A stretch of DNA of 20,074 bases from a virus (lineage: Duplodnaviria; Heunggongvirae; Uroviricota; Caudoviricetes), in IMG/VR virus record IMGVR_UViG_2663763227_000012; one strand, 5' to 3'. Of the stretch, positions 1-20,074 are shown piece by piece. Position 1 is the stretch's first letter, and the number at the start of each line of letters is the position of its first letter. The notes beneath the pieces are model-generated. The model saw nothing but the letters and a program-made list of their open reading frames with translations, was not told the origin of the DNA and did no database searches. The translations under genes were made by a program, and so were the position numbers.

Positions 1-57
1 TACCAATAACGGCGAGTAAGTAGTACGCATCTTACCTCTTTTTTAGAGATAACCATT

Positions 58-177
58 ATGACAATAGAAAAACACGAAAGAAGCACTAAGGATTTGGTGA
101 AAGCAGCAGTATCGGGATGGCTGGGCACTGCGCTTGAATTTTATGGATTTCAAGAGTCATGCGTGTTAACTATTTGA
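58..177 (+). pseudogene. Possible 5' fragment of a host transporter gene truncated at the prophage junction
   Basis: ATG at 58, 39 codons to TGA at 175-177 (MTIEKHERSTKDLVKAAVSGWLGTALEFYGFQESCVLTI). The GTALEFY segment resembles the N-terminal signature of MHS-type transporters, then the frame ends within a few codons. Below the 60-aa ORF-track cutoff; read by hand. Confidence 0.25.
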
Positions 178-188
178 TAAATATTAAA

Positions 189-1484
189 TTAATTTTTCAT
201 TGCTTCGTTATGGGGCATGGTTGGGGCAAACTCGCTTAACTGTGTATTTAACAAAGCTACCTGTGCATTATTGTTTTCAGACATCCATTTTCCGTATACC
301 TGAAATACCATTTGCGCATCTGCATGGCCCATCTGGTTTGCTATAAATGCCGGGTTAGCACCAGCTGTCAGCGACCAGCAGGCATAAGTATGTCTCGACT
401 GATATGATTTTCGATGGCGGAGTCCGGCACGTTTTATCGCTGCGTCCCACATCTGCCTTATTGAGTCAACGGTAAAATGGTCACCATAATTTTTTACTCT
501 CGCTGACACTTCAGGTTGAAAAACAAAGGTGCATTTTTGTTTTTCTGTTCTGCCATACTCTCTGAGGTGAACATCAATGATATGCTCTTTGCTCAGTCTC
601 GTTAATGTCATCTGACTCCGGAGAGCGTCGATTGCTGGCTTAATAAGATGAATGACCCGATTGGTTCCCGCCTGTGTTTTTGGTACCGTGAAACGGTCTT
701 TTGCTAAATTTCTCCTGATCATCATTGTTCCATTTTTCAGATCTATGTCCTCCCATCCAAGTGCACACAGCTCACCAGGGCGAACTCCAGTATAAACAGA
801 AACACACCATAAATTTTTTGCTTGCTGATTTCTGCACGCATCGATAAGACGGATAAATTCTTCCCGCGAAAGAGGATCCGGAATGGTTCTTGATTCCTTT
901 AATGGCGAGATCCCCTTAAACGGATTATCTGCCAGGTAACCGTTATCAACACCAAACTGGAACACGGCGTTAAGATTTGTCATGTAATTATTTACAGTTA
1001 CAGCCGATCTCCCTGGTTGTGTAACAATATAGTTACTTTTGGGGATCTGGTATCCAGTCAGTAACTCTTTACGAACCTCCAGTAATTTTTCTTTATTAAT
1101 CGATGAGGCAAGATTTTTTTCACCGATTATGCTCAGGATATTTTTGATGACGGCACGGTATGTGTTGAGTGATGTTTTGGCGACTTCAGTTTCTTTCAGT
1201 GCCAGAAATTTTTCAGCCAGTTCTTTTATGGTTAAATCTTGTCGGGCCTCACCAAATTTTTCCAGATTGCGTGAGGAGGGAAACTGTTTTGCATAGTCGA
1301 AAACACCAGTTTTTATTGCGTAACAAACAGAGGAGCGTAGTTCACCTGCAACGCGCCTGTTTTTTGCTGTGTCAGGAACCCCCAGATTTTCCCTGACTCT
1401 TACGTCTTTATAAACAAACCAGATACGTAATTTCCCTCCATGGTTTTCCACGCCTGTCGGATATTTCATTTCAACTTCTCTCAT
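189..1484 (-). CDS. int: Phage tyrosine integrase (site-specific recombinase)
   Basis: 431-aa ORF with a C-terminal catalytic region containing R..H..R..H..Y-type residues (LRHRKSYQSRHTYACW). Sits at the prophage edge next to an excisionase-like gene. Confidence 0.9.
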   Translation of the reverse strand: MREVEMKYPTGVENHGGKLRIWFVYKDVRVRENLGVPDTAKNRRVAGELRSSVCYAIKTGVFDYAKQFPSSRNLEKFGEARQDLTIKELAEKFLALKETEVAKTSLNTYRAVIKNILSIIGEKNLASSINKEKLLEVRKELLTGYQIPKSNYIVTQPGRSAVTVNNYMTNLNAVFQFGVDNGYLADNPFKGISPLKESRTIPDPLSREEFIRLIDACRNQQAKNLWCVSVYTGVRPGELCALGWEDIDLKNGTMMIRRNLAKDRFTVPKTQAGTNRVIHLIKPAIDALRSQMTLTRLSKEHIIDVHLREYGRTEKQKCTFVFQPEVSARVKNYGDHFTVDSIRQMWDAAIKRAGLRHRKSYQSRHTYACWSLTAGANPAFIANQMGHADAQMVFQVYGKWMSENNNAQVALLNTQLSEFAPTMPHNEAMKN

Positions 1485-1503
1485 TAGTTAGTGTGGTTTT
1501 TAG

Positions 1504-1755
1504 TCAAGTAAGATGACGTCTTGGTCTCGCTGATGCCTGGCGCTCAATCCAGCGATCAATTTCTTCCAGGTTGTAAAAGCATGGACTGTTATCCCATGGC
1601 ATACCGTCATGAGCGACATGCTTATATTCCCTTCCTTCCATAAACGATTTTTCCCGGGCCTTTTTTAACGTACCTTTTTTTATTCCTTTCAGCGCAATTA
1701 ACTGCTCTTCGGATACCCATTTGCCGGGAGAGACAATCATGATTACTTCGCTCAT
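1504..1755 (-). CDS. xis: Excisionase-like small DNA-binding protein
   Basis: 83-aa basic ORF immediately upstream of int on the same strand, the usual lambdoid xis position. Start codon uncertain (alternative internal Met). Confidence 0.55.
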   Translation of the reverse strand: MSEVIMIVSPGKWVSEEQLIALKGIKKGTLKKAREKSFMEGREYKHVAHDGMPWDNSPCFYNLEEIDRWIERQASARPRRHLT

Positions 1756-1827
1756 CGATTTCTTTATCTCTTACATCAGACGAGCGCCGGTTGCAGAATA
1801 CCAGTCACAACCGGCGACAGTTGAACA

Positions 1828-4299
1828 TTAAGAATCAGCCTGACTCGGGATCAGTTTTTGCCAGATAACTGAAACGTATTTTGCCTGGTAACGGGCGTCA
1901 TCAAGTGCATTATGGCGCTCACCTTCGAATGGAATAGCCGTTCTGGCATCGAAGTCTATGGCTTTCCCCAGCTCAACGATTGTGCGTACATCGCGATCGT
2001 TGTAGTAACGCCACGGGCAGGGGATCCCCTGCCGTTCGTATGAACGGCGCAAAATCGTGTTGTCGAAGTTGGCTCCATTTCCCCAAACCTGAACAAAAAA
2101 TTCACCGGAGTTTTCGTCGATAAATTCTCGCAATTGTAACAGTGCATCATCTAACGGGATTTCATCGGTCATAATGGCAGATTGCGCTTCGCGTGATTGC
2201 TTAAGCCACCATTTAATGGTGTCCCGATCAATGACTCCGCCAGCAGTTTCCAGATCGATAGTCTTACTAAATTCCGGTCCCATATCTCCGGTTTGCGGAT
2301 CGAAAAATATTGCACCTATTGAGATGATCGGGGCATCAGGATTTTTTCCCATGGTTTCAAGGTCGATCATTAGATGGTCACACGTCCTGCTGGTGGATGT
2401 GATTTCGTGATGACCGTTCACCTTAATTGGGTGATCTGCCGTCTCGCCAGTTTCATTATCGCTATTGTGATGCTGATTGCCGCCAGTGTTCTCCTTGTGT
2501 GGATGTTCAGCGCCTTCCATTTCCTCCGGATCATCTTCCTGAACTTCAACCTGATACTCTTCATCGAATGTTTCTTGGTATGTTGCGTCGCCCATCACCG
2601 CGCCACAATCAGGGCAGTTGCCGCCGCCGGTCTGACCGCAGGCGGTGCAGACTTTTTCCACTTCCTGTTGCGCTACTGGTTCAGGCTGTTTCGTTTCTGG
2701 CTCGTTTTGTAACGCATTTGGACTGTTTTGTTCCGCTTTTTGGTAGTTCCGTTCCGATTCATGCTGGTTCTGGTTCACAGAATCGCGGGTCTGGAGCCCC
2801 TTAACCCATTTCGGATCATTCGGGTCACTAATCCCTTCAACAAATTCACCACGTGATGCAGCAAGCAACTTATCGGCGTCAGGCTGGCTGATATTGGCTG
2901 CCTGCATAATTTTGTTTACTTCGTCAGCGGTAACTTTTATCGGCTCTGGTTGTTCTGAATCTTCAGCGGTATCTACATTTTGCGGTAAGCCCGTGTATGT
3001 GCCATTTTTTCGGGCAAAATATTCTTCTTTTGTGATTTCAGTGGCGCCAGCAGCCAGTGCCTTATCCAGACCAGAGAGTTTGTTTGCGCGACCGTATTTT
3101 TCTCCGTCCTTATCTGCGAAGAGGAAATAGAACGGCCCCTCACGCTCTACAGATGGTTCAGCTTCCGGCGCGGTTTCATTTTTTGGGATATCAGATACCT
3201 CAGTTTCCACTGCATCAGTTTGTGTTTCTGATGACTGGAGAACATCAACAGTGCCCAGGTCTGTTTCTTCATTCTCAAACACGCCCTTTGTCGTCAGGTA
3301 TTCGCAGATATATTTGTTCAGTGCTACGGGATCTTTGTGAATGTCGATCGGACGCTCACGGACAAGGCCAAAAATAGTTTGGCGGTCGTAGCGAAGGGCA
3401 TCAGGCTGTTTGCGCATTGATGCCGAGATACGCTTCCAGTCTTCGCGGTCGTTGTCGATAACTTCTTTTTTTGCCCAGCGATGGATGCTGCCGTCAATGT
3501 TTCCGGCATCCACATCACTAGGCCAGAGAGCGTAGGCCAGTTCGTCATCCAGTGTTTTCCATGTCTGCTTGTATTCGCGATGAATGGCAGCAATGACCGG
3601 GCTGATTTTTCCTGTTGAATTTTCAGTGTACTGTTGATTGGCTCTGGCGCGGGCGAGATCAACAACAGACGTGTATTTTCCGGTTTCCTTGCGTTCACCT
3701 TCGCGACGTTTTTTCCAGATGCGCATCTCTGCCTGAATTTCGGGCCATTTGGCACCAGGCTTACATTTATGCTTAACCCACCCGATGGCATGCAGCTTAA
3801 GCTCCGGATACATGGCGTTAACTTCTGGCATTTTCATCAACGCTTCAACGATATGTCCGTCGAATGTTGCCATGTCTTCCTGCAACAATTCCTGCGCGCT
3901 AATCACCATATCAACGGTGATGTTTTCACATGTGTCGAACTTAACCATGACAGCGTTCTGTACTTCAGGGGCCAGCTTGTCAAAAGTGACGTTCATCGGA
4001 TCGGATTCAGTCTCAACCGGGACAAAAGAAGCAGACTCCTCATCCCAGCGGTTTTCCTGCATATATTCAGCATCCCATGAATCGAGGGCAGGGCGGGGTA
4101 TGCCAGGTTTATCCTCGCAGACAATAAATTTATAAGCGCAGTCCTGAGCAGCCGGATAATGTTCCAGGAATTGCCAGTGAAATTTTGCTCGAGCACGGCG
4201 TTCGTCGCCAGCTTCAATGGCTGTGGCTACAGCCACAGCGCCTTCTTCCCTTGTTGCCAGTTCGTCAGGAATAGCGGCGCAAATAAAGACTTTACTCAT
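1828..4299 (-). CDS. Large prophage protein with C-terminal DnaQ-like DEDDh 3'-5' exonuclease domain and a CxxC-x7-CxxC zinc ribbon
   Basis: ORF 1828..4335 (track starts at a TTG); I prefer the ATG at 4299 (MSKVFICAAIPDE...), which has a GAGG about 10 nt upstream. Exo I (MIDLETMG), Exo II (VWGNGANFD) and Exo III (HNALDDARY) motifs lie in the last ~185 aa (nt ~1831-2390). Zinc ribbon VCTACGQTGGGNCPDCG at nt ~2599-2655. N-terminus resembles the K-12 Qin ydfE fragment from memory. Confidence 0.75.
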   Translation of the reverse strand: MSKVFICAAIPDELATREEGAVAVATAIEAGDERRARAKFHWQFLEHYPAAQDCAYKFIVCEDKPGIPRPALDSWDAEYMQENRWDEESASFVPVETESDPMNVTFDKLAPEVQNAVMVKFDTCENITVDMVISAQELLQEDMATFDGHIVEALMKMPEVNAMYPELKLHAIGWVKHKCKPGAKWPEIQAEMRIWKKRREGERKETGKYTSVVDLARARANQQYTENSTGKISPVIAAIHREYKQTWKTLDDELAYALWPSDVDAGNIDGSIHRWAKKEVIDNDREDWKRISASMRKQPDALRYDRQTIFGLVRERPIDIHKDPVALNKYICEYLTTKGVFENEETDLGTVDVLQSSETQTDAVETEVSDIPKNETAPEAEPSVEREGPFYFLFADKDGEKYGRANKLSGLDKALAAGATEITKEEYFARKNGTYTGLPQNVDTAEDSEQPEPIKVTADEVNKIMQAANISQPDADKLLAASRGEFVEGISDPNDPKWVKGLQTRDSVNQNQHESERNYQKAEQNSPNALQNEPETKQPEPVAQQEVEKVCTACGQTGGGNCPDCGAVMGDATYQETFDEEYQVEVQEDDPEEMEGAEHPHKENTGGNQHHNSDNETGETADHPIKVNGHHEITSTSRTCDHLMIDLETMGKNPDAPIISIGAIFFDPQTGDMGPEFSKTIDLETAGGVIDRDTIKWWLKQSREAQSAIMTDEIPLDDALLQLREFIDENSGEFFVQVWGNGANFDNTILRRSYERQGIPCPWRYYNDRDVRTIVELGKAIDFDARTAIPFEGERHNALDDARYQAKYVSVIWQKLIPSQADS

Positions 4300-4391
4300 T
4301 TGTTTTAACCTCATGACAGATTTAAGGATGAACAAATCCCTGCCATTGTTGGCATATAAGAATGAAACCGGATATTTATTACGGAACTGTT

Positions 4392-4583
4392 TTAAAGACC
4401 TGCCGGGATTTCGATATTATCCTGGTGAATAACTTTATCGACCGGGTAACAGTTACCGGGAATTTTCTGTTCGGTTGCTGCAGTCATACACTCCTGCATT
4501 GTCCTGTGAACACTGACTGCAATATCAACTGGCTCTCCGGAAACAAGAAAAACTGTCAGAACAAGCACAAATGCTGAATTCAT
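4392..4583 (-). CDS. ydfD: YdfD-like small secreted/membrane lysis protein
   Basis: 63 aa from internal Met (MNSAFVLVLTVFLVSGEPVD...), hydrophobic N-terminus. Overlaps the dicB stop by 4 nt; matches Qin YdfD as recalled. Confidence 0.8.
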   Translation of the reverse strand: MNSAFVLVLTVFLVSGEPVDIAVSVHRTMQECMTAATEQKIPGNCYPVDKVIHQDNIEIPAGL

Positions 4584-4768
4584 TGTGCACATCCTTTTGG
4601 CATCAGACGTAAACGAGCCAGCATTGAAACAATGCATATTTTATTTAATAGCTCCCGTTCTTGTTTTCTCTTGTTAATGGCATCTTCAGTAAATACTGGG
4701 TTACTGATAGTGACACCAATTTCAAAACAACCTTCAGACGTATTAACGTTTGGTAATAACGTTTTCAT
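4580..4768 (-). CDS. dicB: Cell-division inhibitor DicB
   Basis: 62 aa from internal Met of the 97-aa ORF (MKTLLPNVNTSEGCFEIGVTISNPVFTEDAINKRKQERELLNKICIVSMLARLRLMPKGCAQ). Sequence and position match DicB. Confidence 0.85.
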   Translation of the reverse strand: MKTLLPNVNTSEGCFEIGVTISNPVFTEDAINKRKQERELLNKICIVSMLARLRLMPKGCAQ

Positions 4769-4937
4769 TATCGCGTCCTCAACAATGAATTTTGTGATGC
4801 AGTGCCTGGTGCCTCCAGGTGACGTTAACCAGTTAACAATTAACGCCGGATACAGAGAATCCACCCATAACACTGTTTTTGGTTTTAACTGTTCCGCGTG
4901 CGCTTAGCCGCATTCACTGCATCACAAAATTCACTTT

Positions 4938-4995
4938 AAAAAGGGCGGCAGAGCAGTCACGGAGTAAAACTGATACCGCCAAACGTCACCAGAAA
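4938..4995 (-). ncRNA. dicF: DicF small regulatory RNA (ftsZ-targeting sRNA)
   Basis: Reverse complement of 4938-4995 reads TTTCTGGTGACGTTTGGCGGTATCAGTTTTACTCCGTGACTGCTCTGCCGCCCTTTTT, the DicF sequence with its terminal GC stem and U-tail. Lies between ydfC and dicB as in Qin. Confidence 0.85.
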
Positions 4996-5335
4996 ATTGA
5001 TAACAGAGGGCGTTGCAGCGGGGTTGTCACTTAAGCGTATGGTCAACCTGACAACCCGGTGTCCTCAACGGGGAAGGAATAACCCCGCCATACTTACCGC
5101 CGCGCCATTTCGCGGGTTGCCACAACCGGAAGCGCACGGTCGACGAAAATTTAACGACAGGCTATCTATGAACCAGCTACCTCGCCGTGCGCTTTCGCGT
5201 TATGGTCTGACTTTTCAGGGAAATATCCTTTCAGTAAACTGTCAGTTCCGGATGCGCACCCGTGTCCGGCGCACGCACTCCACCTCACCCGTGGAGAACT
5301 CCTTAATTACTAACCTTAGCTTTGTTGATTAGCTA

Positions 5336-5554
5336 CTAACGCGGGTATGTAATCATTCTGGCAATGCTTAATGCCGCTGCTTTTTCCAGATTGGTGATAT
5401 CCTGCTCCAGAGCGGACAGATTTTCAGCCTGCTTAGCCCTGGCTTCATTGGCCCATTTCAGATCCTGCGCTGCATTAATTTTCTGGCGCATCCACTCATA
5501 AAGTTCATCATCGGTATAGTCTGGCGCGATGATGACGGGTTCTCGTTTCTGCAT
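5336..5554 (-). CDS. ydfC: YdfC-like small protein of the dicB operon
   Basis: 72-aa ORF (MQKREPVIIAPDYTDDELYEWMRQKINAAQDLKWANEARAK...), same strand and order as the Qin dicB operon. Confidence 0.75.
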   Translation of the reverse strand: MQKREPVIIAPDYTDDELYEWMRQKINAAQDLKWANEARAKQAENLSALEQDITNLEKAAALSIARMITYPR

Positions 5555-5583
5555 ACTGATTCCTCGCGGTGCTGTTTCGCTTA

Positions 5584-5712
5584 TCAGCCGTTAGATTTTG
5601 CCGAACTGGAAAGCGCCTGTTTAAACTCACTGAAGCTGAGAGCTTCTTCGCCTTCGGCAAGGCCTTCGAAGTATTCTTCGTAAGCCTTTTCCATGATTGT
5701 GTCGAAATCCAT
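5584..5712 (-). CDS. ydfB: YdfB-like small acidic protein
   Basis: Hand-translated 42-aa ORF (MDFDTIMEKAYEEYFEGLAEGEEALSFSEFKQALSSSAKSNG), below the track cutoff. The track ORFs 5508..5717 and 5569..5766 overlap it in other frames. Confidence 0.7.
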   Translation of the reverse strand: MDFDTIMEKAYEEYFEGLAEGEEALSFSEFKQALSSSAKSNG

Positions 5713-5713
5713 A

Positions 5714-5869
5714 TCACTCACCTGAGTTTCTTTCCAGCCAGCGACGGGCACCATTTTCGGTTTTAAACGTTTTGCTTTTGGTATACGTCATTGCGGTGAA
5801 CGTGCCGTCCTGGTTTGGAAACACGCCGTACACCAGAGATTCGTTGTTGCCAAGATCGATAGTATCCAT
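5714..5869 (-). CDS. ydfA: YdfA-like small protein
   Basis: 51 aa from internal Met of ORF 5714..5947 (MDTIDLGNNESLVYGVFPNQDGTFTAMTYTKSKTFKTENGARRWLERNSGE). First gene after the promoter region downstream of dicA. Confidence 0.7.
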   Translation of the reverse strand: MDTIDLGNNESLVYGVFPNQDGTFTAMTYTKSKTFKTENGARRWLERNSGE

Positions 5870-5949
5870 GCTGACCTCATTTCCCCTTAACGCTGGGGTA
5901 GCGGAACTGTTTGCTGAGAACACCGTGCGGTGTGTTGATGCAAACAAGA

Positions 5950-6035
5950 TTAGCCATGACTAACATATCGGTCAAGTGATTTTGTATGCTATAGCTAACA
6001 TAATTGATGTGGTAAAAGATAACTCATTGATGATG
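5950..6035 (-). promoter_or_regulatory. Candidate promoter/operator region of the dicB operon
   Basis: Intergenic between the dicA stop (6036) and the ydfA start (5869). Contains TGACTAACAT (5957-5966) and TAGCTAACAT (5992-6001), related to the palindromes in the dicA-dicC intergenic region, plus a hairpin AGATAAC-N11-GTTATCT (6017-6041) overlapping the dicA stop. Confidence 0.35.
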
Positions 6036-6443
6036 TTATCTTTTATTTGTCCGCTGACGGGCTTTTAGTAATTCTTCAAAGAGTTTATTGAAGTTTTTTA
6101 CTCGAGCTCGCATTTCGGCGAGCTGGGTATCCTGTTCTGATTCTGGCAGTGCATTAAACAGCTCAAGGAGCTCTAGTTCTTTGGGGGATAAGGCAACTGG
6201 CTTCTCAACAGGTGGTGTTGGTTGCTTGTCTTCATCGCCAAATAGAATCCATGTTGGTGAGCATTGCAATACTTTGCTGAGGGCAAAAAGGTTCTTCCCT
6301 GTAGGTTCACTATCACCCCGTTCCCATTGTGATACAGACACATGGGAGATTTTCAGGGCTTTAGCAAGAGACCTTTGGGTGTGTTTGAGGTTTTTCCGAC
6401 GATACCTGATGCGTTCGCCGATAGTTAAATTTTTTGTTTCCAT
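6036..6443 (-). CDS. dicA: Prophage repressor DicA (HTH_XRE, c2/cI-like)
   Basis: 135-aa ORF (METKNLTIGERIRYRRKNLKHTQRSLAKALKISHVSVSQWERGDSEPT...) with an N-terminal HTH, divergent from dicC. Confidence 0.9.
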   Translation of the reverse strand: METKNLTIGERIRYRRKNLKHTQRSLAKALKISHVSVSQWERGDSEPTGKNLFALSKVLQCSPTWILFGDEDKQPTPPVEKPVALSPKELELLELFNALPESEQDTQLAEMRARVKNFNKLFEELLKARQRTNKR

Positions 6444-6526
6444 AGTTAGCTAATGCTAAATCGTATTGACTATGTTTTTGTTAACATCTATCTTGTTAGT
6501 TATGACTAACAATAAAGGTGTTTTAA
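6444..6526. promoter_or_regulatory. Divergent dicA/dicC promoter-operator region
   Basis: 83-bp intergenic region with palindrome TTAGCTAA (6446-6453) and a perfect 8-bp inverted repeat TTGTTAGT-tatg-ACTAACAA (6493-6512), plus a TTGACT hexamer near 6469. Confidence 0.55.
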
Positions 6527-6757
6527 ATGCTTAAAACTGACGCTCTTTTGTATTTCGGTTCAAAAACAAAACTTGCACAAGCAGCAGGTATTCGTTTGGC
6601 TTCGCTTTATAGCTGGAAAGGGGATTTAGTTCCCGAAGGTCGCGCGATGCGTCTACAGGAGGCATCTGGCGGGGAGCTTCAGTATGATCCCAAAGTTTAT
6701 GATGAATATCGTAAGACGAAGCGGGCGGGGCGGTTGAACAATGAAAATCACTCCTGA
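6527..6757 (+). CDS. dicC: Cro-like regulator DicC
   Basis: 76-aa ORF (MLKTDALLYFGSKTKLAQAAGIRLASLYSWKGDLVPEGRAMRLQEASGGELQYDPKVYDEYRKTKRAGRLNNENHS), divergent from dicA. Confidence 0.85.
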   Translation: MLKTDALLYFGSKTKLAQAAGIRLASLYSWKGDLVPEGRAMRLQEASGGELQYDPKVYDEYRKTKRAGRLNNENHS

Positions 6758-7262
6758 ACAGGCTCGTGAGGCTCTGGATGCCTGGATATGTCGACCAGGA
6801 ATGACACAGGAGCAGGCGACGATATTAATCACTGAAGCATTCTGGGCTTTGAAAGAGCGCCCGAACATCGATGTTCAGCGTGTCACATATGAAGGTGGCG
6901 CGATTGATCAGCGAGCGCTTGGCGTTAATCGAGTGAAGATATTTGAACGCTGGAAGGCTATCGACACCAGGGATAAGCGTGAAAAGTTCACGGCGCTAGT
7001 GCCTGCAATTATGGAGGCTATCCGGATTAATGATTTCAGGTTGTATCGTGAAATTACTGACGGAAAAAGCATCACGTGCATGATCGCCGGGTTAAACAAA
7101 GAATATGGCGATGTGGTGGAGTCCGGACTGCTTTTTGCTGATCCTGCCGTAGTGGATCGTGAAACTGACGAACTTATAGAAAAAGCAATTGCTTTCAAAC
7201 TTGCGTATCGACAGCAATACCAACAAAAAGCTGGATGGAATTATGAGCCTTCTTTTTGCTGA
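6741..7262 (+). CDS. YdaT-like early protein (CII-position regulator family)
   Basis: 173-aa ORF overlapping the dicC 3' end. The central segment (ERWKAIDTRDKREKFTALVPAIMEAI) resembles the conserved core of Rac YdaT as recalled. Confidence 0.6.
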   Translation: MKITPEQAREALDAWICRPGMTQEQATILITEAFWALKERPNIDVQRVTYEGGAIDQRALGVNRVKIFERWKAIDTRDKREKFTALVPAIMEAIRINDFRLYREITDGKSITCMIAGLNKEYGDVVESGLLFADPAVVDRETDELIEKAIAFKLAYRQQYQQKAGWNYEPSFC

Positions 7263-8208
7263 ACGCCCACTGGTTATAAACACGCAGCTGGCAATGAAAA
7301 TTGGCTTAAACGAAGCCATTGTTTTGCAACAACTGCACTACTGGTTGAGAGATACCAACTCCGGCATGGAATGTGATGGTGTTCGCTGGATTTATAACAC
7401 AACGGAACAATGGCTGGAACAGTTCCCATTCTGGTCAGAGTCAACGTTAAAGCGCGCGTTTGCAAGTCTGAAAACGCTGGGGCTTTTGCGTTGTGAAAAG
7501 CTCAATAAATCAAAGCGCGATATGACCAATTTCTACACGATCAACTATGGGAGCGAGCTTTTAGATGGTGGCAAATTGAGCGAATCCATCGGTTCAAAAT
7601 GCGCCGCTCCATCAGGTCAAAATGACACGATGGAAGAGGTCAAAATGAAACGCTCCATTGGTTCAAAACGACCCAATGTCATCGGGTCAAAATGGCCTGA
7701 TGATCTTACAGAGAATACAACAGAGATTACTACAGAGAATAAAAACACTTTTCGTCCGGAAGCTTCGCAACCGGACCCGCAGACGACTGAACAGGATTTT
7801 TTAACCCGGAACTCCGACGCGGTTGTGTTTAGTGCGAAAAAACGCCAGTGGGGTAGCAGGGAGGATTTGGCGTGTGCGCAGTGGATCTGGGGGCGGATCG
7901 TGGGTCTCTACGAACAGGCAGCCAGTGATGATGGCGAGATCATGCGACCAAAAGAGCCTAACTGGACTGCCTGGGCCAATGACGTGCGCACAATGCGGAT
8001 GCTGGATGGCAGAAGCCACAGACAAATTTGCGAAATGTTTGGTCGGGTTCAGCGAGATCCATTCTGGGTAAAAAACATCATGAGCCCGTCAAAGCTCCGC
8101 GAAAAATGGGACGAACTGGTCATCCGCCTGGGACGTTCACCTGTACAGCGTTGTGTTAATCATATTTCTGAACCGGATACAGAAATTCCGCCTGGTTTCA
8201 GAGGATAA
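7243..8208 (+). CDS. Phage replication initiator / replisome-organizer-like protein (O-like)
   Basis: ORF 7189..8208; I prefer the ATG at 7243 (MSLLFAERPLVINTQLAMKIGLNEAIVLQQLHYWLRD...), which gives a winged-helix-like N-terminal domain. Internal iteron array and position after the cro/cII-like genes support an initiator role. Confidence 0.6.
   Translation: MSLLFAERPLVINTQLAMKIGLNEAIVLQQLHYWLRDTNSGMECDGVRWIYNTTEQWLEQFPFWSESTLKRAFASLKTLGLLRCEKLNKSKRDMTNFYTINYGSELLDGGKLSESIGSKCAAPSGQNDTMEEVKMKRSIGSKRPNVIGSKWPDDLTENTTEITTENKNTFRPEASQPDPQTTEQDFLTRNSDAVVFSAKKRQWGSREDLACAQWIWGRIVGLYEQAASDDGEIMRPKEPNWTAWANDVRTMRMLDGRSHRQICEMFGRVQRDPFWVKNIMSPSKLREKWDELVIRLGRSPVQRCVNHISEPDTEIPPGFRG
7588..7694 (+). 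repeat. Five direct iteron-like repeats (consensus ~ATCGGGTCAAAATG) at ~23-bp spacing, candidate ori
   Basis: Copies at 7588-7601, 7611-7624, 7636-7647, 7657-7670 and 7681-7694 inside the initiator gene (seen as repeated IGSK in the protein). Confidence 0.55.
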
Positions 8209-8248
8209 GTGTTGATTTCAGGTCATGAGGTAATTTTAAGGGGGACTT

Positions 8249-8671
8249 GTGGCAAAAGTTTTTACACAAGAAGAGCGGGAAAAAATTAAATGGCAGGTGG
8301 TGGAACTCGTGCGCCAGAGCGGCCGTGAGACGTTACGGCAACTGGAAGCTAAAACAGGTGCGACTAGATATCTGATGAGCGTTCTTGCCAGAGAGCTGGT
8401 AGCCAGTGGCGATGTATACAACTCCGGCTACGGGTTATTCCCCTCTGAACAGGCGCGTAAGGACTGGCAAAACGCCCGCAAAAAACTCTCGAGGGCAAAG
8501 GTGAAGAAACCTGCTGTGGTTGATCCGGACCTTATCTGGTCATCACCTGACGGAGAAATACGTCGCTACGACAGTCGCCTAAACATAATCTGTCGCGAGT
8601 GCCGGAAGAGCGAAGTTATGCAGCGCATACTGGCTTTCTATCAGGGTAATTTTCAGGACGTGGCGCAGTGA
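8249..8671 (+). CDS. Hypothetical prophage protein, possible HTH
   Basis: 140-aa ORF with GTG start at 8249 preceded by GGGGG. Segment ETLRQLEAKTGATRYLMSVLARELV looks HTH-like. Stop overlaps the next gene's GTG start (GTGA at 8668-8671). Confidence 0.5.
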   Translation: MAKVFTQEEREKIKWQVVELVRQSGRETLRQLEAKTGATRYLMSVLARELVASGDVYNSGYGLFPSEQARKDWQNARKKLSRAKVKKPAVVDPDLIWSSPDGEIRRYDSRLNIICRECRKSEVMQRILAFYQGNFQDVAQ

Positions 8672-9024
8672 GTGCACCGGCAACCATTCTTGATATGTGC
8701 TGTGGCAGCCGCATGTTCTGGTTCGATAAGTCTGACGAACGGGCGATATTCAGCGATATCAGAAAAGAAGGATACACATTACGCAATGGGAGACGCTTGA
8801 TTATCAGCCCTGACATTATCGCAGATTTTCGTGCATTATCATTTGCAGACGCATCTTTTTCGATGGTTGTATTAGACCCTCCGCATCTTGAGAGTGTTGG
8901 TGATAACGCCTGGATGGGAAAGAAATATGGACGGCTGAATAAAGATGCCTGGCGTGATGATTCGCGACAGAGATTTAAAGAAGCCTTTCGGGTGTTGAGG
9001 CCGCACGGCGTTCTGATTTTTTAA
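8668..9024 (+). CDS. N6-adenine DNA methyltransferase-like protein, short and probably truncated
   Basis: 118 aa with SAM motif I-like DMCCGS and motif IV DPPH (VVLDPPHL), plus a RVLRPHGVLIF strand typical of class I MTases. Too short for a complete MTase fold; the frame stays open 30 codons past the TAA at 9022-9024. Confidence 0.55.
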   Translation: MSAPATILDMCCGSRMFWFDKSDERAIFSDIRKEGYTLRNGRRLIISPDIIADFRALSFADASFSMVVLDPPHLESVGDNAWMGKKYGRLNKDAWRDDSRQRFKEAFRVLRPHGVLIF

Positions 9025-10137
9025 TGGAATGAAACGCAAATACCGGTAAGCCAGATTCTGGCACTGACAGACAGAAAACCTGTTATCTGTCAACGAACAG
9101 GGAAAAAACGATAAAACCCACTGGATTATTTTTATGAAAGAGGCATCCAGTGAGTAGATTCGTAAGGCTACAGATACGTATATCTGAATAATTAAATTCA
9201 GTTCTGTAAATAAAATTTAATCCTTAACCGGATGGATTTCTGCACCCTCAGAACATCAGGAGGCCGCCCGAAAGGGCGGTAGTGAAATGCGAAAGTTCAA
9301 AATTATTATTGAAACGGGAATAGCTGGTGGAGATTTTGAGGATGTATTCGAAGTGGACGATGACGCAACACCTGAGGAAATTCATGACGGAGCATAAGAA
9401 ATTTTCTTTAACTACTGCAATTACTCATACCACGAAATAAAAGACGATGAGGAAGAACAAAGTGGCTGATTTTTGTTCAGCTAAATATAACATCAGTTTT
9501 GAAGAGCGGGATGAACTATTAATGGACTATGGTGAGTTACGCGGTGGAAGTGCTGCTGATGTCGAATCCTAGCGTGATGACTATGAAGCGGGAAAAACTC
9601 CGGTCGAAGCATATTGTGATGAGTGGGGCGATGAATGAGCGAGATTAATTATCAGGAAGGGCATGAAACGGCGGGGCAAGCAAAACCAGTGGCATGGCGA
9701 TATCGCTACGTGAAAAAAGGCGTTACGGACTTTCAGGGGAAGTAGTGGTCTGGTGACTGGAAATATGTACCGAAAAAAGAGGATTGTAACGACAGGCCGA
9801 ACTATCAAATTCAGGCCTTATTCACTGCCTCACCAGTCCCAGTTACATCAGAAGAACTGGTTAAAGCTGTGCACTTTTATGAACAACTAAAACGCGAAAA
9901 TCCACCAACATCCGGCAACTAGATTAATGGATTAACTATGTCGGTTAAACGACCAGCCAACTGAAAAAGCGGAAACCTGATTACAGGTTGCCAGATAAGG
10001 CAATGAGCTACCTGGCGCGGAACGGACTGATAAGTATGGGGAATGTTTTACGATGAACCTTTAGACTAAAGAGTTTGTAACGCTATGTAAGTGATTTTTT
10101 CTGGTTTAGATATTTATATGTCCGGCCAAATTGAGGT
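9025..10137. other. AT-rich decayed accessory segment with several gene-like frames each broken by an in-frame stop
   Basis: 9288-9470 (MRKFKIIIETGIAGGDFEDVFEVDDDATPEEIHDGA-TAA-EIFFNYCNYSYHEIKDDEEEQSG), 9490-9637 (in-frame TAG at 9569-9571) and 9635-9921 (MSEINYQEGHETAGQAKPVAWRYRYVKKGVTDFQGK-TAG-WSGDWKYVPKKEDC...). No ORF over 60 aa on the plus strand. Confidence 0.4.
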
Positions 10138-10176
10138 GTGTTTAAATGTAATTGCACATTGATTGTAGGAGGAATA

Positions 10177-10356
10177 ATGAAAAACGCATTGCAGTTTTTG
10201 TTTGTTGCGTTCTGGTTGTTCGCATCATGTATGCCCATCATCTTCACAGCAAGGTATATGGAAAAAGTTGATGTTTTGATATTAATATTTGGATATATAA
10301 ATGCCCTTTTTTTAGGGGTGTTCATGGCGGTCATGTGCATTGAATACTGGCGGTAA
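10177..10356 (+). CDS. Small hydrophobic (predicted two-TM) membrane protein
   Basis: 59 aa from ATG 10177 (MKNALQFLFVAFWLFASCMPIIFTARYMEKVDVLILIFGYINALFLGVFMAVMCIEYWR) with canonical AGGAGG 5 nt upstream. Lies in an AT-rich island. Confidence 0.45.
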   Translation: MKNALQFLFVAFWLFASCMPIIFTARYMEKVDVLILIFGYINALFLGVFMAVMCIEYWR

Positions 10357-10690
10357 ATACAGCGAACTCCATTGGTTTAGTTGGATATTTACTGTGCTGG
10401 ACAAAAACGGTTTGCGGGGAAATCTTAGTTAAGTAGAATGACTGCGGGTGCTTGAGGCTATCTGCCTCGGGCATGGACACCAACGGCAGATAGAGAAAAG
10501 CCCCAGTTAACATTACGCGTCCTGCAAGACGCTTAACATTAATCTGAGGCCAATTTCATGCTAGACACATGTAGGTTAGCCTCTTACGTGCCGAAAGGCA
10601 CGGAGAAGCAGGCTATTGTTAACACCAAGCTGTAATGTCCCCTTTGAACCATTCTAAAATGTCCCCAGACAATTCTCTGGGGGATTTTTC

Positions 10691-12004
10691 ATGATCAAAG
10701 AGACTGTTACGATGAGTCATAAGGAACTCCACCGACTTCAGATTATTCAGGAACAAGCTGCGGCACGCATTGGCATTTCTATTCGGCAGGTTAAACGTCT
10801 GGTGCAACGGTATAGAAATGAAGGGCCTTCTGGTCTGGTTTCCCACCGACGTGGAAAGCGTCCTAATAATTCCTTTTCTACTGAATTCAGAGCAACAGTA
10901 ATTTCACTCCTCAAAGGCCGTTACGCTGATTTTGGACCTACGTTTGCGTGCGAAAAATTGCGCGAGATACACGGTTTATCTTTATCCGTTGAAACTCTCA
11001 GAAAGTGGATGATAGAAGAGGGGTTATGGCGTGAACGCCGTCGTAAAATTGCCCGTATATATCAACGCCGCATGCGACGACCATCTTACGGTGAACTGAT
11101 CCAGATTGATGGCTCACCTCATGACTGGTTTGAAAATCGAGGCCCCAGATGTACACTGATCGTTTTCATTGATGATGCCACCAGTGCGTTGATGGCGTTG
11201 CGTTTTGTGCCTGCTGAAACAACCCGGGCTTACATGGAAACCCTCCGGGGTTACCTTAATGATCATGGCGTACCGCTCGCTCTCTACTCTGATAGACACA
11301 GTATATTCAGGGTAAATAACCCAGAGCGGGAAGGTGAGCTGACCCAGTTCACTCGTGCGATAAAGACACTGGGCATCGAGCCAATCCATGCCAACAGCCC
11401 GCAGGCAAAAGGGCGGGTAGAGCGCGCCAATCAGACACTACAGGACAGGCTGGTCAAAGAAATGCGGCTTCAGAATATCAGTGATATTGAAACAGCAAAT
11501 GCATGGTTGCCGACCTTTATTGAAGCCTATAACAACCGGTTCGCTACGTCGCCTCGTACTACTGATAATGCTCATCTTGATGTGCACCATTCTGAAGAGG
11601 AACTGGGTTATATCTTCAGCCTACAGGCGAAGCGCGTTCTGTCTAAAAATCTCACTTTCCAGTACAAAAGCAGTGCGTTTCAGGTACGCAGTGAGGGCCG
11701 GGGATATCGACTTAGGCATTCGGTTGTTACTGTATGCGAGAACTTTGACGGTGAAATTAACGTTCTGTATGACGGGAAAGCGCTGGGCTGGGAAAAGTAT
11801 GTTGATGGCCCGGAGCCTATACCACTGGATGATGAAAAGAGTGTCCATGAACGAGTGGATAATGCCCGTATTGATTTACGCTCAAAATACTATGTTAAAC
11901 CTAAAGCTGACCATCCCTGGCTTACGCGCCGAACGCAAAGTCATCAGCAAGTTAAGCCCCCGAAGTTACCTAAAAAGAAGCCTGATCCCGATAAAAAAGA
12001 TTGA
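10691..12004 (+). CDS. DDE transposase/integrase-core (rve) protein with N-terminal HTH, IS481/ISNCY-like
   Basis: 437-aa ORF: N-terminal HTH (IGISIRQVKRLVQRY), then an rve-type catalytic core (IQIDGSPHDW...TLIVFIDDATS...GRVERANQTLQD) and a basic C-terminal tail. Element boundaries not resolved. Confidence 0.8.
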   Translation: MIKETVTMSHKELHRLQIIQEQAAARIGISIRQVKRLVQRYRNEGPSGLVSHRRGKRPNNSFSTEFRATVISLLKGRYADFGPTFACEKLREIHGLSLSVETLRKWMIEEGLWRERRRKIARIYQRRMRRPSYGELIQIDGSPHDWFENRGPRCTLIVFIDDATSALMALRFVPAETTRAYMETLRGYLNDHGVPLALYSDRHSIFRVNNPEREGELTQFTRAIKTLGIEPIHANSPQAKGRVERANQTLQDRLVKEMRLQNISDIETANAWLPTFIEAYNNRFATSPRTTDNAHLDVHHSEEELGYIFSLQAKRVLSKNLTFQYKSSAFQVRSEGRGYRLRHSVVTVCENFDGEINVLYDGKALGWEKYVDGPEPIPLDDEKSVHERVDNARIDLRSKYYVKPKADHPWLTRRTQSHQQVKPPKLPKKKPDPDKKD

Positions 12005-12399
12005 AACCAAGATCGATTCGGTTGAGTGCATATCCATTCATAGGGTAGATTCTTAAGTCGCGTTTCTGGTGTTCATTTTCGGGTGGTTTGTTACTTGTTT
12101 TACCGGGGATATGCCAGAAACGCGCTGAGTCAGTCTGGGCGGTGCGCGTAATGAGGCGTTATGGTAAATAGCCTATGCTAATGTCCGCTAAGAGCAAGAA
12201 GCGGAAGTTGGCAGTTTTGTGGACTGTCCCCACAAAAGTGACTACAGAAATAGTTGCAATTCATAATTGATCATGGGTTGTCAGTTAAACTCGTGGCGAT
12301 TTAAATAGACTAATTGGGAGTGCGTCCATTACTTATATCTTGTAATGTTAACTATCAGAAATGATACAAAGATAATATGTCTTTAAAGAAAAGGCTGAT

Positions 12400-12427
12400 G
12401 GCGAAAAGTGGCCCGATGAGGGCCACA
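12400..12427 (-). terminator. Intrinsic terminator downstream of flxA
   Basis: Hairpin GTGGCCC-gatgag-GGCCAC (12408-12426) followed on the minus strand by a T-run. Confidence 0.5.
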
Positions 12428-12440
12428 ATACGGCTGTCAC

Positions 12441-12773
12441 TTAGACGTAAATATCAATGGTGCCAGCGGTATTTGTATCGTCTTTTTTCTCTTCTTTTTT
12501 ATCAGGCTGAACTGTCGCGTCTTCATTCTTTTTCTCTGCCTGCTGCCTTAACAACTGCTCCAGTTGAGCCCAGAGGCTTTCAATTTGCTTTTGTACCAAT
12601 GCAGCCATTTCTTTTTTCTGCTGTGTCGTCATCCCCTCTTCCGATGAGATTTTCCCAAGCTTTTCAGTCAGCACCTGAATTTGTCTTGTGATTTTGGCTA
12701 TTTCTGATGTTCCTTCCGGGGCGGAGTTGTTTGAAATAACGGTTGAGGTATTTCCCTGAATTGTGACAGACAT
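12441..12773 (-). CDS. flxA: FlxA (sigma-28-dependent Qin prophage protein)
   Basis: 110-aa ORF (MSVTIQGNTSTVISNNSAPEGTSEIAKITRQIQVLTEKLGKISSEEGMTTQQKKEMAALVQKQIESLWAQLEQLL...) matching FlxA as recalled. Confidence 0.85.
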   Translation of the reverse strand: MSVTIQGNTSTVISNNSAPEGTSEIAKITRQIQVLTEKLGKISSEEGMTTQQKKEMAALVQKQIESLWAQLEQLLRQQAEKKNEDATVQPDKKEEKKDDTNTAGTIDIYV

Positions 12774-12796
12774 AGATTTCTCCTTTTAAAAAAACA

Positions 12797-12824
12797 CTAT
12801 CGGCATGCACAAAAAAATCTTTAA
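12797..12824 (-). promoter_or_regulatory. Sigma-28 (FliA) class-3 promoter for flxA
   Basis: Minus strand reads TTAAAG-N15-GCCGATA (-35 at 12819-12824, -10 at 12798-12804), close to the FliA consensus TAAA-N15-GCCGATAA, about 25 nt upstream of the flxA start. Confidence 0.6.
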
Positions 12825-12975
12825 TCGTATTTCTTGTGTCATTAATTGTTTGATGTTCAGATTGTTTTCCTCGCGGGCTGGCGCGCCTCAGAAAGTAAAG
12901 CTTGTTGACAGGGGTAAACGTTCGGCAATAATTTTCTGCCGCATGCGGGTGTTGCATAAAACGTGTTACGTTCCT

Positions 12976-13281
12976 TTATCGACAGGTCAGGTCACCGCTC
13001 ACCCGCCGACGAGAAAGCAACACTGACATGCTAAAGCAAAAAATAGATGAATAAGTTGAGTTGTGCATATGTAGCCTGACCGTCACAAAGTATATGGTGT
13101 CTGTACCAGTAAGATGATGGCCGGACTCTTTAAAAACGAGCTGACCTGCACAATACAGGATGGACTTAGCAATGGCTGCTCCTGGCACAAAGCGGACAGT
13201 GATCACCGTTCTTACGACTACTTTCTGACTTCCTTCGTGACTTGCCCTAAGCATGTTGTAGTGCGATACTTGTAATGACAT
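12976..13281 (-). CDS. ydfV: YdfV-like hypothetical protein
   Basis: 101-aa ORF between flxA and relB, same position and length as Qin ydfV. Unusual composition, so it may not be a real protein. Confidence 0.45.
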   Translation of the reverse strand: MSLQVSHYNMLRASHEGSQKVVVRTVITVRFVPGAAIAKSILYCAGQLVFKESGHHLTGTDTIYFVTVRLHMHNSTYSSIFCFSMSVLLSRRRVSGDLTCR

Positions 13282-13294
13282 TTGTAATTACAAG
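13269..13294 (+). promoter_or_regulatory. relO-like operator in the relBE promoter
   Basis: CTTGTAAT-gacat-TTGTAATTACAAG: inverted and direct TTGTAAT hexads immediately upstream of the relB start. Confidence 0.6.
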
Positions 13295-13305
13295 AGGTGT
13301 AAGAC

Positions 13306-13545
13306 ATGGGTAGCATTAACCTGCGTATTGACGATGAACTTAAAGCGCGTTCTTACGCCGCGCTTGAAAAAATGGGTGTAACTCCTTCTGAAGCGCTTCG
13401 TCTCATGCTCGAGTATATCGCTGACAATGAACGCTTGCCGTTCAAACAGACACTCCTGAGTGATGAAGATGCTGAACTTGTGGAGGTAGTGAAAGAACGG
13501 CTTCGTAATCCTAAGCCAGTACGTGTGACGCTGGATGAACTCTGA
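13306..13545 (+). CDS. relB: RelB antitoxin
   Basis: 79-aa ORF (MGSINLRIDDELKARSYAALEKMGVTPSEALRLMLEYIADNERLPFKQTLLSDEDAELVEVVKERLRNPKPVRVTLDEL), near-identical to E. coli RelB as recalled. Confidence 0.9.
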   Translation: MGSINLRIDDELKARSYAALEKMGVTPSEALRLMLEYIADNERLPFKQTLLSDEDAELVEVVKERLRNPKPVRVTLDEL

Positions 13546-13832
13546 TGGCGTATTTTCTGGATTTTGACGAGCGGGCACTAAAGGAATGGCGAAAGCTGGG
13601 CTCGACGGTACGTGAACAGTTGAAAAAGAAGCTGGTTGAAGTACTTGAGTCACCCCGGATTGAAGCAAACAAGCTCCGTGGTATGCCTGATTGTTACAAG
13701 ATTAAGCTCCGGTCTTCAGGCTATCGCCTTGTATACCAGGTTATAGACGAGAAAGTTGTCGTTTTCGTGATTTCTGTTGGGAAAAGAGAACGCTCGGAAG
13801 TATATAGCGAGGCGGTCAAACGCATTCTCTGA
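13545..13832 (+). CDS. relE: RelE toxin (ribosome-dependent mRNA interferase)
   Basis: 95-aa ORF (MAYFLDFDERALKEWRKLGSTVREQLKKKLVEVLESPRIEANKLRGMPDCYKIKLRSSGYRLVYQVIDEKVVVFVISVGKRERSEVYSEAVKRIL). Start overlaps the relB stop (ATGA). Confidence 0.9.
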   Translation: MAYFLDFDERALKEWRKLGSTVREQLKKKLVEVLESPRIEANKLRGMPDCYKIKLRSSGYRLVYQVIDEKVVVFVISVGKRERSEVYSEAVKRIL

Positions 13833-13903
13833 ACCAAAGCATGACATCTCTGTTTCGCACCGAAGGTGACACTTCTGCTTTGCGTTGACAGGAGAAGCAG
13901 GCT

Positions 13904-14059
13904 ATGAAGCAGCAAAAGGCGATGTTAATCGCCCTGATCGTCATCTGTTTAACCGTCATAGTGACGGCACTGGTAACGAGGAAAGACCTCTGCGAGGTAC
14001 GAATCCGAACCGGCCAGACGGAGGTCGCTGTCTTCACAGCTTACGAACCTGAGGAGTAA
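13904..14059 (+). CDS. hokD: Hok-family membrane toxin HokD (RelF)
   Basis: Hand-translated 51-aa ORF (MKQQKAMLIALIVICLTVIVTALVTRKDLCEVRIRTGQTEVAVFTAYEPEE), below the track cutoff. GGAGAAG RBS; third gene after relBE. Confidence 0.85.
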   Translation: MKQQKAMLIALIVICLTVIVTALVTRKDLCEVRIRTGQTEVAVFTAYEPEE

Positions 14060-14127
14060 GAGACCCGGCGGGGGAGAAATCCCTCGCCACCTCTGATGTG
14101 GCAGGCATCCTCAACGCACCCGCACTT

Positions 14128-14158
14128 AACCCGCTTCGGCGGGTTTTTGTTTTTATTT
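14128..14158 (+). terminator. Rho-independent terminator after hokD
   Basis: CCCGC-ttcg-GCGGG stem (14130-14143) followed by TTTTTGTTTTTATTTT. Confidence 0.7.
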
Positions 14159-14275
14159 TCAACGCGTTTGAAGTTCTGGACGGTGCCGGAATAGAATCAA
14201 AAATACTTAAGTAGCGCGCAGGGATAAGAGGGATGGTCCCTTAAAGGGGAGAGCTAATTATCCGGAAGGATTCTG

Positions 14276-14527
14276 ATGATGAACATCGAAGAACTGCGTA
14301 AAATTTTTTGTGAAGATGGCCTCTATGCTGTGTGCGTTGAAAATGGAAATCTTGTTAGTCATTACCGCATTATGTGTTTGCGAAAGAATGGGGCTGCGTT
14401 AATTAATTTTGTGGATGCTCGGGTCACGGACGGATTTATCTTGCGCGAAGGTGAGTTTGTCACTTCATTACAGGCATTGAAAGAGATCGGAATAAAAGCT
14501 GGCTTTTCTGCTTTTTCAGGAGAATAA
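14276..14527 (+). CDS. rem: Rem-like small prophage protein
   Basis: 83-aa ORF (MMNIEELRKIFCEDGLYAVCVENGNLVSHYRIMCLRKNGAALINFVDARVTDGF...), matching Qin Rem in length and position after hokD. Confidence 0.6.
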   Translation: MMNIEELRKIFCEDGLYAVCVENGNLVSHYRIMCLRKNGAALINFVDARVTDGFILREGEFVTSLQALKEIGIKAGFSAFSGE

Positions 14528-14593
14528 ACTCATCTACAATCTTGCGCGGGGCTGAACTCCCGCTGAGTAACACCGTGCCACCGGAGAAAACCG

Positions 14594-14872: not shown

Positions 14873-14873
14873 C

Positions 14874-15875: not shown

Positions 15876-15935
15876 TATTTCGTTTTATCGATCGCGCGCT
15901 GGCAATTGGCGTACTGGCGTAAGTGGAGAACGAGC

Positions 15936-16688: not shown

Positions 16689-16793
16689 ATGATTTTTGCT
16701 GAAGATGGCGACATGATGTTTGCATTTTTCAAAAAATATGGATAAAATTTTTTCAACGATGGGCTTTGTATACCCGACGTTAAGAAAAAGTAG

Positions 16794-18807: not shown

Positions 18808-18811
18808 TCCA

Positions 18812-19123: not shown

Positions 19124-20074
<951 letters not shown>

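Follow-up and report, generated by a model that had tools for sequence, protein, structure and literature searches.

The intact integrase-excisionase-exonuclease arm of a Qin-type prophage in ydfJ and its remnants in Escherichia coli K-12

The stretch of DNA analysed here (20,074 nucleotides, called the window) raises the question of whether a Qin-type prophage has kept the end that encodes its integrase, and what this means for the history and the activity of the prophage. The inactive intQ and the variation in Qin size from strain to strain are already published. One study (PMC3105296) detected no excision of Qin in K-12 and described intQ as inactive. A sequence-only reading of the window had claimed that int, xis and a full exonuclease gene were uninterrupted in it, and that K-12 Qin was rearranged and had no intact integrase module next to the dicB operon. 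We compared the window with K-12, with complete E. coli genomes and with sequenced phages. The coordinates of the features are collected in Table 1.

The window covers the 20 kb at the integrase end of a lambdoid prophage of the Qin type, with ydfJ as the insertion site. The stop codon of rspB directly precedes the first position of the window, and K-12 Qin occupies the same site in ydfJ beside rspB. In an empty-site genome, the uninterrupted ydfJ aligned to window 1-154, with its start codon at window 58. The phage match began at 141 and the empty-site match stopped at 151-154, which bounded the attachment core. The Qin core TTATGGATTTC was common to the window, K-12 attL and K-12 attR. At 11 bp, the core was too short for a repeat search across K-12 Qin to recover the att duplication, and this search gave chance repeats only. 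The gene order from dicB to rzpQ was colinear with that of K-12 Qin (NC_000913.3, 1632277-1652745), as judged by the annotation of the colinear locus L001, and covered the dicB operon, dicA/dicC, relBE, hokD, ydfU, cspB/F and the lysis genes. The aligned segments were 99.3-100% identical. The T-run at 139-142 had four T in the attL of the window and three in attB, K-12 and two other lysogens. This extra T beside the core could be a sequencing error, or it could disturb the core-type Int site.

Table 1. Features of the window and of its comparison with K-12 Qin
Feature	Position	Strand	Description or basis
ydfJ 5' fragment (host gene; ynfP in K-12 annotation)	58..151	+	Bacterial side of attL
att core TTATGGATTTC in attL	141..151	none	Four-way alignment: empty attB, window attL, PhiR42_1/Tritos attP, K-12 attR
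int	189..1469	-	426-aa tyrosine recombinase (RefSeq start 1469); N-terminal arm-type DNA-binding domain
xis	1504..1755	-	83-aa excisionase, DUF1233 family
exo	1828..4299	-	823 aa from RefSeq ATG 4299
dicB operon, immediately upstream of exo (also minus strand)	4392..4994	-	RefSeq annotation of colinear locus L001
ydfD	4392..4583	-	
dicB	4580..4768	-	
DicF sRNA	4943..4994	-	Rfam, 76.7 bits, E 1.1e-15
Segment missing from K-12 Qin	1349..3532 (2184 bp)	none	blastn breakpoints 1348/1349 and 3532/3533
Second segment missing from K-12 Qin	7021..11819	none	blastn
End of IS3-family element inserted in rzpQ (Rz)	19818..20074	none	Runs off the window

The claim that the three genes are uninterrupted held. 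Window 189-4335 carried three uninterrupted ORFs on the minus strand, which were translated without internal stops and had strong family matches. This int-xis-exo module was placed between the ydfJ attachment site and ydfD-dicB-DicF. PHROGs called an integrase, an excisionase (PHROG 539) and an exonuclease (PHROG 2082, with 822 of the 823 profile positions covered). The int ORF (189-1484) gave 431 aa from the first ATG at 1484, compared with 426 aa from the RefSeq start, and the protein was the same as RefSeq WP_000876958.1. The N-terminal arm-type domain matched PF12167 (Arm-DNA-bind_2, 3.8e-22) over the full-length profile with 78.5 bits (cutoff 22), and the catalytic domain matched PF00589 (Phage_integrase, 4e-18) with 66.2 bits (cutoff 27.1). 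When Int was aligned to Tn1549 Int, R230, K264, R359, H382 and Y392 were in place. The first His of the R-K-H-R-H-Y set was Tyr356, a residue common to the phage integrases. The xis gene shared the strand of int and was located 34 bp upstream of it, and the xis product matched the DUF1233 excisionase family (PF06806, 1.6e-31) over profile positions 1-69 of 70 with 108.1 bits (cutoff 22).

The exo ORF (1828-4335) gave 835 aa from a TTG, compared with 823 aa from the ATG at 4299. The C-terminus of Exo was an Rv2179c-like DEDDh 3'-5' exonuclease domain (PF16473, aa 654-825 in the 835-aa numbering, 2.4e-67) with 226.5 bits (cutoff 27), and the motifs DLET, NFD and HNALDD were visible in the alignment consensus. 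Exo is thus predicted to be a DEDD-type 3'-5' exonuclease. This exonuclease alone was also present in many unrelated Stx and ompW prophages.

The arrangement suggested a leftward early operon ydfABC-DicF-dicB-ydfD-exo-xis-int, which would be repressed by DicA, with the 823-aa protein as a probable solitary 3'-5' exonuclease at its distal end. When window 1-6600 was scanned for promoters and terminators, the counts equalled or came close to those expected from shuffled sequence, and neither int expression nor retroregulation could be read from them. In phage lambda, the leftward early operon ends by attP with a tyrosine integrase of the arm-binding kind and a small excisionase, and recombination or nuclease genes lie just upstream. 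The lambda int-xis-exo region is a functional analogue of the left arm of the window, since both have an arm-binding integrase, a small excisionase next to the attachment site and a nuclease gene just upstream. However, Xis of the window belongs to another family (DUF1233), the insertion is in ydfJ and not in the lambda site, and the nuclease is predicted to be an 823-aa DEDDh 3'-5' enzyme and not lambda Exo. No gene annotated as having a Beta/RecT-type or Gam-type function was found in the left arm.

In the comparison with K-12 MG1655 (NC_000913.3) by blastn, window 1-1348 matched 1652895-1651549 at 99.85% and window 3533-4878 matched 1650844-1649499 at 99.3%. No counterpart of the segment between them was found, which confirmed that K-12 Qin has no intact arm. 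The lost DNA comprised int codons 1-41, all of xis and exo codons 256-823 (the C-terminal 568). At the gap, K-12 had a 706-bp IS2 remnant (IS2E), located by annotation between the ydfE and intQ pseudogenes, and a true IS2 terminal repeat abutted intQ in the K-12 sequence. The term rearranged did not fit this end of K-12 Qin. It was deleted instead, and the remnants still flank the IS2 fragment next to the dicB operon: a 386-codon intQ without residues 1-41 of the arm-binding domain, and a 255-codon ydfE that corresponds to the first 255 aa of Exo. Compared with the window proteins, the intQ fragment had no more than one changed residue and the ydfE fragment had none. Judged by sequence comparison, the identity of the left-arm genes and their relation to K-12 are very probably correct as described.

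K-12 Qin was also without a second segment. Window 6398-7020 and 11820-12458, on its two sides, were each 100% identical to adjacent K-12 DNA. The segment held the C-terminal part of a YdaT-like gene, an O-like replication initiator (7243-8208; PHROG 391, 1.1e-91), a DUF977 gene and a methyltransferase, and further held pseudogenes, a sok-like RNA and most of an ISNCY/rve transposase ORF. This initiator supported the claimed presence of replication genes. By annotation, nearly all head and tail genes were gone from K-12 Qin, with nohA running straight into stfQ. In contrast, rzpQ had no IS in K-12, whereas it was interrupted in the window copy. K-12 Qin very probably belongs to the lineage of the window prophage and has decayed further. 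In K-12, codon 41 of int would have been the entry point of an IS2, and a deletion next to it would then have removed the inner IS2, the int start, xis and the catalytic two-thirds of exo; the order of these IS2 events is inferred.

The intact form was not confined to the window. At least 80% of window 1-4878 was present in one place in 2260 of the 5426 complete E. coli genomes, which is an upper bound because some matches reached only 84% of the query and missed the int 3' end. The K-12 junction was present in 351 of the same 5426 genomes. Phage PhiR42_1 (PV340562.1, 48,668 bp, host E. coli ECOR13) matched window 141-19817 in one piece at 99.9%. It had identical Int and Xis, Exo at 100% (rounded), and the same ISNCY/rve ORF and pseudogene stretch. 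It differed in being deposited as a complete phage genome with attP joined, in carrying all the lambda-like head, tail and fibre genes, and in having no IS in Rz. No paper on how PhiR42_1 was obtained was found in the literature searched, and its status as a propagated phage was taken from the record metadata and the joined attP only.

Tritos (OV696610.1), HannyBb (PP925841.1) and mEp460_ev081 (LR597641.1) shared the arrangement of pin, attP, int, xis, exo, ydfD and dicB. Int was 99-100%, Xis 100% and Exo 89-100% identical to the window proteins in these three phages, and the same ranges held when PhiR42_1 was counted as the fourth. However, only 54-68% of the window was shared with the three, and their immunity, replication and late-regulation modules differed. 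Of the three, Tritos alone was compared at the core and the P' side; its core was one base off (TTATGCATTTC), and its P' side differed from the window at two positions. In the records of PhiR42_1, Tritos and HannyBb (the three inspected), a ynfT/ydfK-type prophage far end lay beyond attP, which is the excised configuration. The isolation source of HannyBb was given as 'bird poop'.

These comparisons bear on two other readings of the arm. If exo were an orthologue of RecE (exodeoxyribonuclease VIII), the left arm would be a Rac-like RecET recombination module. The PhiR42_1 and Tritos records label Exo as exodeoxyribonuclease VIII, and about 445 bp of the window (2433-2877) were 86% identical in DNA sequence to recE of Rac-type prophages. 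This resemblance lay in the central region of Exo, which is homologous to the non-catalytic part of RecE. However, the NCBIfam model of exodeoxyribonuclease VIII (NF007259) covered profile positions 271-600 of 877 only and scored 281.6 bits, far under the cutoff of 1269, and the RecE identity of exo was rejected on this score. The C-terminal third of the RecE model had no match in Exo, which carries the DEDDh domain there instead, and exo had no neighbour annotated as RecT or another annealing protein. A RecE orthologue is therefore hardly credible here. Tritos is the listed prototype of a class with a nuclease and without an annealing protein (PMC12315714). The other reading is that the intact arm was not ancestral to K-12 Qin, and that the window copy is a mosaic that acquired it later from a Tritos/mEp460-type phage. 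Lambdoid phages are mosaic, and the exonuclease occurs outside this module. In addition, Tritos, HannyBb and mEp460 carried int-xis-exo at 95-99% identity while sharing little more than half to two-thirds of the window. Against this, both flanks of the K-12 deletion were 99.3-100% identical to the window, the intQ and ydfE fragments nearly matched its proteins, K-12 Qin as a whole was 99.8% identical to PhiR42_1, and an IS2 remnant lay exactly at the gap. A later acquisition is very unlikely because a simple deletion explains all of these observations.

The remaining question was whether the prophage with this arm is still active. Int and Xis would recombine attL, with its core at 141-151, and attR to give a circle carrying attP. 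The predicted attR would have the core TTATGGATTTC with the phage arm ...CACCTGTGAA on one side and the ydfJ sequence CAGTTATATTCGC... on the other. The products would be attP with ...CACCTGTGAATTATGGATTTCAAGAGTCATGCG... and attB with ...GCGCTTGAATTTATGGATTTCCAGTTATATTCGC.... Particle production would require an intact run of genes from terminase to tail fibre, of the kind present in NZ_CP039837.1 at 2647556-2670320. The window holds attL, and attR and the late genes are beyond it. The chance that this copy can excise appears to be about even. The possibility that the left arm is intact but the prophage is grounded by damage elsewhere, and cannot excise or cannot make particles, falls only a little short of that. 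The grounding could be caused by the IS in Rz, by a missing attR, by missing head and tail genes, or by the additional T at attL, where four T stand against three in attB and the other lysogens. Colinearity with L001 and PhiR42_1 ended at 19817, and the rest of the window matched IS3-family transposase copies, so that an IS3-family element interrupts rzpQ at 19817/19818. This rzpQ::IS junction was found in 0 of the 5426 complete genomes, and the best whole-window matches among them had other IS insertions. In the close relatives L003 and L004, an island with its own integrase has inserted into this prophage and split its major capsid gene. However, a lambdoid phage normally survives without Rz. 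The relative found in O55:H7 USDA5905 ended at ydfJ and had its head, tail and fibre genes complete, the early region of the window was 99.9% identical to the complete PhiR42_1 genome, and nothing in the window inactivates int or xis.

The sequence-only reading had taken the rve region, the decayed stretch and the IS in Rz as signs that the prophage is defective. The first two were weak evidence because PhiR42_1 carries both in its single aligned piece, and only the Rz IS was specific to this copy. The same reading had proposed the window as a better template for the ancestral phage. It is better than K-12, but it had no special value among about 2260 of 5426 genomes with the intact arm and beside PhiR42_1. 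It seems rather unlikely that the prophage is still inducible and particle-forming despite the IS remnant and the pseudogene stretch. If this were true, Qin-type phages would tolerate IS and pseudogene 'junk', and the Rz IS, the only lesion visible in the window, would at worst impair lysis under some conditions. Its Int and Xis, supplied in trans, might also excise K-12 Qin.

The intact left-arm form is a correct observation that is ordinary and already known. Its significance is weak because the form is common and is represented by sequenced phages. Templates of the ancestral Qin are already at hand in the genomes of PhiR42_1, Tritos, HannyBb and mEp460 and in thousands of lysogens. Both att cores are kept in K-12, and therefore clean excision of Qin could be assayed there with the int-xis cassette of any intact copy. 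The ydfE, intQ, ydfX and ydfW of the reference genome are deletion remnants and not genes. The comparison is a reminder that this phage type still circulates and that its Qin copy in K-12 is a wreck peculiar to that lineage.

The window, 20,074 bp of E. coli DNA, began directly after the stop codon of rspB and extended into a lambdoid prophage. Its top matches were E. coli chromosomes (99.7-99.9% identity), in which RefSeq gave the order site-specific integrase, excisionase, exonuclease, ydfD, dicB, ydfC/B/A, dicA, and dicC. These were followed by a YdaT-like gene, a replication gene, DUF977, a methyltransferase, pseudogenes, an ISNCY transposase, ydfW, flxA, and ydfV, and then by relBE, hokD, rem, ydfU, ydfT, cspF, cspB, essD, ydfR, rrrQ, and rzpQ. 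This gene order was that of the K-12 cryptic prophage Qin, taken from the rspB side. The cold-shock gene of the prophage, cspB, was preceded by a cspA-type thermoregulator 5' leader.

The int, xis, and exo genes were translated, and no internal stop was found in any of the three. The functions given by PHROGs were the same as those from Pfam. These results confirmed the sequence-only reading, which had described int, xis, and the full exonuclease gene at 189-4335 as uninterrupted. Residue 356 of Int was Tyr (YQSRHT), at the position of the first His in the R-K-H-R-H-Y tyrosine-recombinase signature. The same Tyr was present in the identical integrases of the phages PhiR42_1, Tritos, HannyBb, and mEp460.

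Features of the prophage and their coordinates in the window
Feature	Position	Strand	Length	Assignment
attL common core	141-151		11 bp	within ydfJ codons 28-31
int	189-1484 (RefSeq start 1469)	-	431 aa (RefSeq 426 aa)	arm-type DNA-binding and phage-integrase catalytic domains (Pfam)
xis	1504-1755	-	83 aa	full-length DUF1233 excisionase (Pfam)
exo	1828-4335 from TTG (RefSeq ATG 4299)	-	835 aa (RefSeq 823 aa)	C-terminal Rv2179c-like 3'-5' exonuclease domain (Pfam)
sok antitoxin RNA	10446-10617	+		Rfam, 104.1 bits, E 4.7e-23
ISNCY/rve ORF	10691-12004	+	437 aa	HTH and rve_3 domains
cspA-type thermoregulator 5' leader	17462-17854	+		Rfam, 158.8 bits
IS3-family element	19818-20074			in rzpQ (Rz)

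The corresponding region of K-12 was compared by blastn against MG1655. Window 1-1348 matched K-12 1652895-1651549 with 99.85% identity, and window 3533-4878 matched K-12 1650844-1649499 with 99.3%. The 2184 bp between these blocks had no counterpart in K-12, where a 706-bp IS2 fragment (IS2E/insD7) is annotated between the pseudogenes ydfE and intQ. This bore out the earlier claim that K-12 lacks an intact left arm, and the exact breakpoints were now placed. In protein alignments, K-12 intQ started at Int residue 42, so that most of the arm-binding domain was missing, and ydfE corresponded to residues 1-255 of the 823-aa Exo protein, without the nuclease domain. xis was absent from K-12. The intQ side of the K-12 IS2 was a terminal inverted repeat, and the ydfE side was an internal IS2 breakpoint. 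In the simplest history, IS2 would have inserted in int first, and an adjacent deletion would have followed.

A second deletion removed window 7021-11819 from K-12, and both of its flanks were 100% identical to the window. K-12 ydfX was therefore the surviving N-terminal part of the YdaT-like gene, and ydfW was the tail of the uninterrupted ISNCY/rve ORF, whose last 49 codons were left by this 4.8-kb deletion. In RefSeq the ORF is annotated in two pieces, a "partial ISNCY transposase" and ydfW, which takes its name from K-12. The sok antitoxin RNA was located within the K-12-deleted region that had been called a decayed stretch, and the strand opposite carried only a degenerate Hok-like frame (an ORF with ...EFAVFTAS...). 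This appeared to be another hok/sok locus in decay, in addition to hokD.

Several phage records name the exo product exodeoxyribonuclease VIII (RecE). The NCBIfam RecE model gave 281.6 bits for the 823-aa protein, against a cutoff of 1269, and covered profile positions 271-600 only. The C-terminus was instead a DEDDh 3'-5' exonuclease domain, with the motifs DLET, NFD, and HNALDD. RecE identity was rejected on these grounds, and the likeness lay in a non-catalytic middle common to both proteins. No annealing-protein gene was annotated by RefSeq among the neighbours of exo. Tritos was described as the prototype of a small lambdoid phage class with a nuclease, but without an annealing protein or anti-RecBCD function (2025 survey, PMC12315714).

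To place the attachment site, the window was aligned with an empty ydfJ site from another genome, with attP of PhiR42_1 and of Tritos, and with K-12 Qin at its far end. This four-way alignment gave the common core TTATGGATTTC. The phage match started at window 141 and the empty-site matches stopped at 151-154, so that independent boundaries agreed with the core. The T-run at 139-142 beside it had four T in the window, three in attB, K-12 attL, and two other lysogens, and two in attP. The extra T put the small ynfP ORF out of frame. It could be an error in sequencing the homopolymer, or it could be genuine and alter an Int core-type site. attR was beyond the window.

The same module was found in sequenced phages. 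PhiR42_1 (PV340562.1; 48,668 bp, host ECOR13) matched window 141-19817 in a single piece with 99.9% identity. Its morphogenesis genes were complete, its attP was joined, and it was 99.8% identical to K-12 Qin. The search for a paper on how it was obtained found none, and its status as a propagated phage was taken from its record. Tritos (OV696610.1), HannyBb (PP925841.1; isolation source "bird poop"), and mEp460_ev081 (LR597641.1) carried pin, attP, int, xis, exo, ydfD, and dicB. Their proteins compared with those of the window at 99-100% for Int and 89-100% for Exo, and Xis was identical. The integration module of the window was therefore that of phage genomes deposited as complete.

The prophage had been read as defective, based on the rve region, the decayed stretch, and the IS in Rz. 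The rve ORF and the decayed stretch were weak evidence of a defect because both were inside the single-piece PhiR42_1 match. The IS3-family element in rzpQ (junction 19817/19818) was the sole lesion specific to this copy, and its junction was found in 0 of 5426 complete RefSeq E. coli genomes, which places the source strain outside that set.

Separately, in two close-relative lysogens, L003 (46006-48311) and L004 (CB6837; 44476-49130), the Qin-type prophage had its major capsid gene truncated by an inserted element. The L004 insert encoded a tyrosine integrase of its own together with an HTH regulator, an Icd-like product, and a primase, a P4-satellite-like content. Of the L003 insert, the part up to the end of the locus showed only the integrase, the HTH regulator, and a gene for a DUF2971 protein.

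In 2260 of the 5426 complete E. coli genomes, a single place contained 80% or more of window 1-4878; this count is an upper bound for arms that are fully intact. The ydfE-IS2-intQ junction of K-12 was found in 351 genomes; the examples listed were ER1709 and one strain with its source given as "laboratory". In O55:H7 USDA5905, the same prophage continued through terminase, head, tail, and fibre genes, a full lambda-like set, and reached pinQ, ydfK, ynfT, and the 3' part of ydfJ. Phage genomes already available and thousands of lysogens pre-empted the value proposed for this copy as an ancestral template. In K-12, Qin excision was undetected and intQ was described as inactive (Wang et al. 2010, PMC3105296). 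Qin-locus prophages span 11 to 97 kb in 189 strains, with intQ mutations noted (Ramisetty and Sudhakari 2019, PMC6379469). From these two studies, it was already established that K-12 Qin is what deletions have left of larger prophages. The observation of an intact left arm and its comparison with K-12 were correct, now with exact breakpoints.
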